From IMG/VR virus record IMGVR_UViG_2563366840_000014, positions 1-24,668 of that record: a stretch of 24,668 nt of DNA. One strand, written 5' to 3'. Below are positions 8,922 through 9,731 of this stretch, one piece after another (positions within the stretch are counted from its first letter, which is position 1; the number at the start of each line of letters is the position of its first letter). The notes beneath the pieces are model-generated. The model did not search any database. It had not been told where the DNA came from and worked only from the letters and a program-made list of their open reading frames with translations. The position numbers and the translations under genes are program-made. Source of the stretch: a virus. Taxonomy: Duplodnaviria > Heunggongvirae > Uroviricota > Caudoviricetes.

Positions 8922-9119
8922 ATGCGGAAATCCGACGTGATTAATTATTTCGGCGGAGTTTGTAAAACCGCCGAAGCCCTAGGTATTAAGCATCCGTCTG
9001 TTTCAGAGTGGCCTGAGATTATTCCTGAAGGCCGAGCGTACCAGTTAGAAAAAATTACTAACGGGAAACTGAAAGTTGACGTGTCTTTATATCAAAAGAC
9101 TAACAGTGCTGCGGCATAA
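8922..9119 (+). CDS. Cro-like / YdaS-family small DNA-binding regulator
   Basis: 65-aa ORF divergent from cI with GGGAGA RBS; sequence resembles YdaS/Cro-type proteins (recalled). Confidence 0.7.
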   Translation: MRKSDVINYFGGVCKTAEALGIKHPSVSEWPEIIPEGRAYQLEKITNGKLKVDVSLYQKTNSAAA

Positions 9120-9146
9120 AAACACCACAGAAATGAGGAATTAACC

Positions 9147-9731
9147 GTGGGTAAAGAACCTGAATGGAAAGTTGATAAACAACCAGCATGGCTGGTGGCA
9201 GCAATACGAAGAACGATTGCTGATTTACCTCATGGCTATGAGGAAGCAGCAGAAATTCTTGGTTTGTATAAATCTGATGATATCACCCCAGCAAAAGATC
9301 AATTGCATAACAGACTGCGTAGCGGTGGGGATCAAATTTTTCCACTTGAGTGGGCCATGGTTTTACAGGATGCCAGTGGTACCAGGCATGTAACAGATGC
9401 AATAGCCCGTCGTAGTAATGGGGTGTTTGTGCCGCTGGTGGTCATTGATGACATTGACAATGGTGACATTAATCAGCGGCTGATGGAGTCAATAGAATGG
9501 ATTGGCAAGCATTCCCAGTACTTACGCAAGGCAACTGCTGATGGAGTTATTGACCAAGCTGAGCGTGAGCAAATCGAAGAGAACAGCTACCAAGTAATGG
9601 CGAAGTGGCAGGAGCATTTAACACTGTTATTTCGTGTTTTTTGTGCGCCGGAAAAGAGTAACGCCCGCGAGTGTGCAGCTCCGGGCGTCGTGGCGTCGAT
9701 TGCTTCTGGTTGTGGAGAAACTAACGCATGA
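9147..9731 (+). CDS. YdaT-like / CII-family regulatory protein
   Basis: GTG start with GAGGA RBS; follows the cro-like gene as ydaT follows ydaS in Rac. Confidence 0.6.

Follow-up and report, generated by a model that had tools for sequence, protein, structure and literature searches.

The window analyzed here is a stretch of 24,668 nucleotides (24.7 kb) corresponding to positions 1 to 24,668 of the IMG/VR virus record IMGVR_UViG_2563366840_000014, a member of the Caudoviricetes; the locus under study is its immunity region, in particular two open reading frames (ORFs) between positions 8922 and 9731. Both are located on the plus strand as originally described. The first one (8922-9119) starts with ATG and encodes 65 aa, the second one (9147-9731) starts with GTG and encodes 194 aa, and they are arranged head to tail with a spacing of 27 nt. 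Their divergence from a cI-type gene was also borne out: the gene at 8173-8826 on the minus strand encodes a repressor of 217 aa belonging to the LexA-like, self-cleaving type (Pfam Peptidase_S24 3.7e-25; HTH_3 1.1e-15; PHROG 4, repressor). Prophages of many E. coli chromosomes, such as the one next to zur/dinF in FDAARGOS_1257, are 100% identical to the region from 8100 to 10100, and so is phage vB_EcoM-720R4; Stx2c phages share about 82% of this region. RefSeq annotates these three genes with unchanged boundaries in the identical E. coli prophages, under the names "LexA family protein," "Cro/CI family transcriptional regulator," and "YmfL family putative regulatory protein." The immunity region of the window is already correctly annotated there.

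The 65-aa protein matched the Pfam model P22_Cro (PF14549) over residues 2-59 with 77.3 bits (7.6e-22) and the structure of P22 Cro (PDB 1rzs) over residues 1-59 (7.3e-12), which amounts to a full-length match to both the model and a solved structure; furthermore, its gene is the first one of the rightward promoter PR and is divergent from cI. The match to YdaS_toxin (PF15943) was marginal, with 31.6 bits at a cut-off of 30, whereas YdaS of the Rac prophage showed the reverse pattern with 107.7 bits for YdaS_toxin and 36.8 bits for P22_Cro. The identity between both proteins is 33% over 43 aa. Judged from these comparisons, the gene at 8922-9119 is cro and encodes a P22-type Cro protein, and YdaS is a more distant relative from another subfamily of the same superfamily. 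The prediction of a Cro-like protein therefore holds, and the term "YdaS/Cro family" is acceptable at the superfamily level. The window protein resembles P22 Cro in full-length match, position, and length; the operators in the window differ in specificity, being of the ATGTAGGATATCCTACAT type.

The 194-aa protein was assigned to a different family than originally proposed. It scored 181.2 bits (8.4e-54) against the YmfL equivalog model NF041471 of NCBIfam, for which the cut-off is 90, and it matched PHROG 101, "CII-like transcriptional activator," with 3.4e-62. Over its full length it is 56% identical to YmfL of the E. coli K-12 prophage e14. Pfam PF06892, Phage_CP76, was matched with 28.8 bits at a cut-off of 26, e14 YmfL reaching 48.9 bits, and a Phage_CP76 match was found in 61 of 64 full-length distant relatives. 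An exhaustive profile search yielded only 236 cluster representatives at E ≤ 0.001. When the PDB was searched with the single protein or with a profile of close homologs (A1), nothing meaningful was obtained, the matches being Bcl-w and designed helical bundles at E > 0.03. Only a broader profile made from 64 distant family sequences (A2) reached the CII protein of phage 186, with 5.3e-7 and an alignment running through the helix-turn-helix (HTH). The recognition helix of 186 CII, NVQTLRNKL, carries the published cII- mutations V36E/Q37S (PMC7708051).

The structure of the 194-aa protein was modeled with AlphaFold (AF2). The model, with a mean confidence score (pLDDT) of 75, contains helices at residues 14-25, 30-37, 50-57, 67-77, 81-90, 105-130, and 137-165. 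The HTH is predicted at about residues 30-57, followed by two long helices within residues 105-165; residues 169-194 have a pLDDT below 50 and probably form a disordered tail. A Foldseek search of the PDB returned 186 CII for all of the top seven matches with a probability of 1.00 and E values of 2e-3 to 2e-2; the template modeling (TM) scores to 6vpe and 6vli were 0.46-0.53, and no other match was found below E = 1. The residues N55, R56, L57, and R58, located in the putative recognition helix, are invariant in the close YmfL family. In the turn of the HTH (residues 38-49 approximately; 9234-9290), an insertion of 8-9 residues, YKSDDITP(A), is present as compared to e14 YmfL. The insertion is modeled with high confidence and is common to a subset of the homologs. 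According to profile, identity, model, and Foldseek data, the gene at 9147-9731 on the plus strand is a cII-like activator gene of 194 codons, and its product is a member of the YmfL/phage 186 CII family.

These results bear on the proposal that YdaS/YdaT-like proteins occupy the Cro and CII positions. The two genes indeed take the places of cro and cII in a lambdoid immunity region, with a Cro of the P22-Cro/YdaS superfamily encoded by the first one, but the 194-aa protein is no relative of YdaT. It gave no match to PF06254 at E ≤ 0.01, BLASTP against Rac YdaT yielded E = 5, and an hhalign comparison of the 64-sequence family profile with YdaT gave a probability of 0.55%; Rac YdaT itself matches only PF06254 (1.8e-11). 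The YdaT structures 3c4r and 8bt1 were present in the searched copy of the PDB and were not among the 50 Foldseek matches listed, of 71 with E ≤ 10. These structures comprise a POU-like DNA-binding domain and an alpha-6 tetramerization helix, and the fold of the 194-aa protein, judged from the matches listed, is not theirs. Additionally, the YdaT box TTGATT-N6-AATCAA was not found in the whole window with up to two mismatches. Sequence searches thus revealed no relation of the second protein to YdaT, the YdaS relation of the Cro being one of distant superfamily members, and YdaT homology is already refuted by these comparisons. The pair could be seen as a YdaS/YdaT-type module with a possibly toxic YdaT homolog as one partner of a toxin-antitoxin-like pair, as the 194-aa gene follows a Cro of the YdaS/P22-Cro superfamily and Rac YdaT is toxic on expression (PMC11879457). 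Given the missing PF06254, BLASTP, and profile matches, the absence of YdaT from the listed structural matches, the lack of a YdaT box, and the observation that expression of e14 YmfL did not cause filamentation, we regard this explanation as extremely improbable.

The question whether YdaS and YdaT are toxins or regulators has largely been settled in favor of Cro/CII-like regulators, and the toxicity of Rac YdaT was traced to mis-regulation of the host gene rcsA (PMC9986795; PMC8630535; PMC11879457). The debate cannot be transferred to the 194-aa protein because this protein is not homologous to YdaT; nothing similar to the rcsA effect is known for YmfL. Upon expression of the e14 genes from pBAD, ymfL did not lengthen the cells and ymfM led to filaments of about 57 µm (bioRxiv 10.1101/2020.11.19.390815). 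By analogy with this homologous module, the suspected toxicity is that of the neighboring ymfM-like ORF (9728-10066, plus strand). The context, that is cro and cII positions beside cI, the operator region OR with PR, and replication genes, argues against a type II toxin-antitoxin pair. YdaT of Rac and CP-933P (PF06254; 8bt1, 3c4r) can nevertheless be considered a functional analog: it is an HTH regulator in the cII position, its targets are inverted repeats located both between and within the genes for the Cro-like and CII-like proteins, and it stimulates transcription from a leftward promoter of the repressor gene (PMC9986795; PMC11879457), but it has no sequence, profile, or fold relationship with the 194-aa protein and uses a different box.

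For identification of binding sites, 57 loci encoding relatives were fetched, one genome per species, from Enterobacter, Citrobacter, Kosakonia, Erwinia, Pantoea, Tatumella, Serratia, Edwardsiella, Xenorhabdus, and other genera; S24-type cI genes were divergent in nearly all of them. Alignment at the start codon of the cII-like gene revealed a near-invariant CCACAG at -22 to -17 and CC-GTG-G at -2 to +4. Together they form a 26-bp inverted repeat, CCACAG-N14-CYGTGG, with half-sites 20 bp apart from center to center, corresponding to two helical turns. Exactly two copies exist in the window as compared to 0.11 expected from shuffled sequences, and no further copy was found in the window at two mismatches. 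Site 1 (9125-9150; CCACAG-N14-CCGTGG) covers the ribosome-binding site (RBS) and the GTG start codon of the cII-like gene. Site 2 (9850-9875), a perfect palindrome CCACAG-N14-CTGTGG located 725 bp to the right, lies in codons 41-50 of ymfM. Two other inverted repeats, at 8949-8976 within cro and at 9199-9222 (CAGCAAT-N10-ATTGCTG), were dropped as candidate CII sites; neither is conserved in the related loci.

Of about 50 loci, 47 contain site 1, which lies at -22 of the start codon in 44 and at -27 in the three Xenorhabdus loci; site 2 is present in 45, at about +660 to +676 relative to the start codon of the cII-like gene. The 14-nt spacers vary from locus to locus, and the remainder of about 270 kb contains few stray matches. 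Site 1 is retained in four loci without ymfM (L012, L030, L031, and L041). It also occurs behind at least four Cro families, namely YdaS-type (17), P22-type (13), HTH_3 (6), and lambda Cro (1), out of 27. Site 1 therefore tracks ymfL rather than the neighboring genes. The conserved, unusual GTG start is explained by the fact that GTG is part of the half-site. The sequence record of phage 186 places the beginning of the CII site, ATGTTTG-N13-CAAACAT, at the cII start codon, with the promoter pE directed leftward; the half-sites of this inverted repeat are at -38 and -58 of pE. Most likely, the 194-aa protein binds CCACAG-N14-CYGTGG, as suggested by this analogy and by the distribution of the repeat.

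Alternatively, the repeats may be bound by something else, such as the N-terminal domain of YmfM, the DUF4222 protein encoded downstream, or a host factor, and the YmfL-like protein may act at other targets. Site 2, being located inside ymfM, is confined to loci with this gene. Site 1, however, persists in ymfL loci that lack ymfM or an adjacent DUF4222 gene, its geometry and its position at the start codon copy those of the 186 CII site, and neither YmfM nor DUF4222 contains a DNA-binding domain recognizable in Pfam. Hence, we consider another binding protein very unlikely, and binding by the 194-aa protein remains the preferred assignment.

Both sites are accompanied by predicted leftward promoters. 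Promoter P1 consists of a -10 element TAGTCT (9097-9102, minus strand) preceded by TGt, the extended element being TGtTAGTCT at 9105-9097; with a transcription start site (TSS) near 9090, it would be analogous to pE and to pRE of lambda and read antisense through cro toward cI. Promoter P2 (9821-9849, minus strand) comprises a -35-like GTTACA (9849-9844), a 17-nt spacer, and an extended -10 element TGgTACATT (9829-9821), with a TSS near 9814. It lies within ymfM codons 29-50 and is antisense to the 5' part of ymfM and to the cII-like gene. At site 1, a minus-strand TAnnnT begins exactly 24 nt past the proximal half-site in 38 of 47 loci and is shifted by 1 nt in eight more; counted by sequence clusters (<70% identity), the offset is kept in 25 of 31. 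The same 24-nt offset was found for site 2 in all 45 loci and all 11 clusters, compared with a background of less than one TAnnnT match per offset. When the TSS is assumed to be 7 nt after the -10 hexamer, the half-sites are centered at -38.5 and -58.5, as at 186 pE. At the sequence level, the window contains the arrangement of a 186 CII target, an inverted repeat with half-sites two turns apart at -38/-58 of a predicted leftward promoter that overlaps the 5' end of the gene.

Furthermore, codon usage in ymfM was examined across the loci. In the half-sites, the codons Asn41 AAC (40/40), His42 CAC (44/44), Ser43 AGY (41/41), and Val49 GTG (43/43) are frozen, and the same holds for Cys40 TGT in the -35 element (25/28), Val33 GTA in the -10 element (27/27), and Tyr29 TAT at +1 (42/43). 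Several codons are used for Val38, Val51, Ala45, Arg44, and Gly50 of ymfM, and codons 5-40 of ymfL vary freely. Synonymous codons are frozen exactly at the elements of P2, and we therefore conclude that selection acts on the DNA in addition to the protein. Two further elements were considered. TGaTATAAA at 9094-9086 looks like a stronger -10 element for P1 and would place the half-sites one turn further upstream. Its offset is not conserved elsewhere because it encodes the SLYQK end of the P22-type Cro, though it may still serve in this phage. A terminator-like hairpin at 9196-9182 on the minus strand (QPAWLV codons), located between P2 and site 1, was judged incidental; its synonymous positions vary freely, with all four codons being used for Pro13.

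The same two sites would also be compatible with a repressor or roadblock that autoregulates at its own start and blocks transcription from PR into ymfM and the replication genes, the -10 elements then being incidental. Site 1 covers the RBS and start codon of the protein's own gene, site 2 lies in the path of transcription from PR, and the original description of YdaT was that of a "CII repressor equivalent" (PMC9986795). However, such a roadblock explains neither the fixed TAnnnT offset (38/47 and 45/45) nor the frozen codons at the -35, -10, and +1 positions of P2; moreover, bound CII of 186 is no roadblock to transcription from pR (PMC6593788). Repression by the 194-aa protein thus appears unlikely.

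We consider it likely that the 194-aa protein is a CII-type establishment activator driving the two leftward promoters. After infection or derepression, transcription from PR (8861-8890) would produce Cro and then the CII-like protein, which would combine the HTH with a long helical region for oligomerization and a disordered C-terminal tail. We infer that it binds both boxes, acts there as an activator rather than a repressor, and recruits RNA polymerase to the weak promoters P1 and P2 as its physiological targets. The P1 transcript would run antisense through cro and OR into cI and allow establishment synthesis of the repressor, like those from 186 pE and lambda pRE. The P2 transcript would be antisense to the 5' part of ymfM and to the activator gene and would oppose transcription from PR toward ymfM, the DUF4222 ORF, and the O-like gene. 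In this way, P2 may damp lytic or host-damaging functions and feed back on the activator, with a logic like that of lambda paQ and oop. The CII protein of 186 is unstable through its C-terminal region, its degradation involving FtsH/RseP (PMC7708051); by analogy with 186 CII residues 146-169 (PMC7708051), the tail formed by residues 169-194 is a candidate degradation signal.

Comparison with 186 CII (PF06892; PDB 6vli, 6vpe, 6vmh) revealed the same Pfam family and, by Foldseek, the same fold, in which an N-terminal HTH precedes long helices and a C-terminal tail; both proteins are encoded second on the lytic transcript. Likewise, the inverted repeat with half-sites 20 bp apart overlaps the start codon of the gene itself, and the leftward promoter has half-sites near -38/-58. 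Differences are the insertion of 8-9 residues in the HTH turn of the window protein, an identity of just 16-18%, and the half-site, which is CCACAG in the window and ATGTTTG in 186. Irrespective of whether the loop insertion is present in a homolog, the CCACAG half-sites are the same. Furthermore, the window represents a lambdoid prophage that carries an S24-type cI together with a P22-type Cro, whereas 186 is a P2-like phage with Apl. The role in the circuit is also that of lambda CII and P22 C1, which are made from PR after cro and activate leftward promoters, one overlapping the 5' end of their own gene and others antisense to lytic genes. Those proteins, however, belong to an unrelated family and recognize the direct repeat TTGC-N6-TTGC; the sole copy of this repeat in the window is at 18344 and none is in the immunity region, and no lambda CII match was obtained with Pfam.

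Another close system is e14 with YmfL (b1147), the last 22 residues of which are identical to those of the 194-aa protein. It has the same neighbors (ymfM, a DUF4222 ORF, and an O-like gene), and both inverted repeats are at the same positions. In contrast, the partner Cro of e14 is YmfT, which has no detectable similarity to the window Cro, the repressor also differs, and e14 YmfL does not contain the loop insertion. It is annotated as "uncharacterized," and the absence of filamentation was the sole test found in the literature searched. Somewhat more doubtful than not, but worth serious consideration, is the broader proposal that the whole YmfL branch, including K-12 e14, controls two leftward promoters via one box, one for repressor establishment and one inside the SOS-linked ymfM, so that lysogeny would silence ymfM and the activator by antisense transcription.

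Several points weigh against the activator model. The similarity to 186 CII is distant, with 16-18% identity, a Pfam score of 28.8 at a cut-off of 26, and a TM score of about 0.5, and the literature searched yielded no DNA-binding or activation experiment on any YmfL-family protein. The repeat is assigned to the 194-aa protein by co-occurrence and by analogy with 186, where one CII site exists as compared to two in the window. The P1 region is partly shared by descent, a mosaic junction being located inside the 3' end of cro, and its conservation is not wholly independent. P2 has a fair -35 element and an extended -10 element and may fire without an activator. Finally, the antisense small RNA (sRNA) ECS003 of K-12, the sole published leftward RNA of the e14 region, starts 84 nt downstream of the predicted P2 start. 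We therefore rejected ECS003 as a confirmation of P2; it documents leftward transcription in the region and does not confirm the start.

ECS003 was reported with 116 nt by sequencing and about 70 nt on Northern blots, running from the ymfM ATG antisense into the 3' end of ymfL (PMC3175480). Its counterpart in the window is located at 9653-9730 on the minus strand, as indicated by identity and folding; its 5' end coincides with the ymfM ATG, and it lies antisense to the 3' part of the cII-like gene. Window and K-12 do not differ over the first 68 nt, after which a GC-rich hairpin and a T-run ending near 9653 follow. A sigma-70-like promoter, TTGCGA-18-TAAACT, lies just upstream on the same strand. 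Relative to the cII-like gene, the counterpart occupies the same place as oop RNA does relative to lambda cII.

The ymfM-like ORF encodes 112 aa with 96% identity to K-12 YmfM, a cell-division inhibitor in e14, and the conserved domain covers about the first 60 residues; its ATG overlaps the TGA of the 194-aa gene. A DUF4222 ORF of 59 aa with a TTG start is located at 9907-10086 on the plus strand (Pfam DUF4222 8.6e-19; also called by RefSeq) and overlaps the 3' half of ymfM by 160 nt in a different frame. YmfM homologs in other genera are 58-78 aa long. In the overlap, the window differs from K-12 at four nucleotides; each of these differences alters YmfM and is silent in the DUF4222 protein, which is 100% identical to that of K-12. 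Therefore, the back half of YmfM looks unselected, and the C-terminal half of annotated YmfM may be read-through that is not under selection. Published ymfM expression clones would also carry most of DUF4222.

Mosaic joints were observed at two places. At 9090-9119, the last cro codons belong to the conserved cII module, and unrelated Cro proteins in other loci share the tails -ETAA, -ESAA, or -SAAA. A joint with e14 is located near 9661; over the last 70 nt or so of the cII-like gene, and throughout ymfM and DUF4222, the two sequences are nearly identical. In the deposited record of phage vB_EcoM-720R4 (ON470603.1, locus L002), the cII-like gene at 4258-4632 was cut to 124 aa by use of an internal ATG start; this annotation lacks the HTH region and the conserved GTG start, and the Cro gene is labeled "hypothetical protein."

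The regulatory DNA is of a typical lambdoid kind. An 18-bp operator of the ATGTAGGATATCCTACAT type is present in five copies, three between cI and cro and two at 8057-8110; these copies overlap PR and PL. OR (8825-8889) contains the three operators at 8825-8842, 8850-8867, and 8872-8889, identified by repeat families and sequence reading. The rightmost one overlaps PR, a plus-strand TTGACA-18-TACATT found by promoter scan with 10 of 12 matches. In OL/PL (8057-8110, minus strand), repeat families and promoter scan revealed the two operators ATGTAGGATATCCAACAT and ATGTTGGTTATCCTACAT flanking the leftward TTGACA-18-TACATT at 8086-8057. A perfect 10-bp stem, AAAACCGGGG/CCCCGGTTTT, at 8130-8152 immediately follows the cI stop codon on the minus strand and separates cI from OL/PL; it probably is a bidirectional terminator insulating cI from the PL operon.

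Downstream of ymfM and DUF4222, the O-like replication gene is located at 10076 and is directly followed by a homolog of PerC-family transcriptional activators (11014-11508, plus strand; Pfam PerC 7e-9; YfdN-like). An ORF of 108 aa at 12158-12484 on the plus strand, named "LexA repressor" by RefSeq, belongs to the early right operon, where its neighbors are a DNA methyltransferase and RusA. By its length, it apparently comprises only the LexA-like N-terminal DNA-binding domain without the S24 cleavage domain and may be a LexA mimic that cannot be cleaved.

The region is an ordinary lambdoid immunity switch which uses a 186-type CII of the YmfL family, and neither the YdaT label nor its toxin question applies to the 194-aa protein. 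The YmfL family is widespread and uncharacterized, occurring in E. coli K-12, Shigella Sf phages, Stx2c phages, and many Enterobacterales prophages. A 26-bp box, two predicted promoters with start sites, and an explanation for the GTG start now provide a model that can be tested also in K-12 e14. If the model is true, a lambdoid circuit would have been built with a P2/186-type part and would contain a paQ/oop-like arm that is absent from the literature searched. The comparison also shows that the place of a lambda-type CII or of YdaT can be taken by a 186-type CII behind at least four Cro families, which represents a clear case of functional exchange of modules in lambdoid switches.

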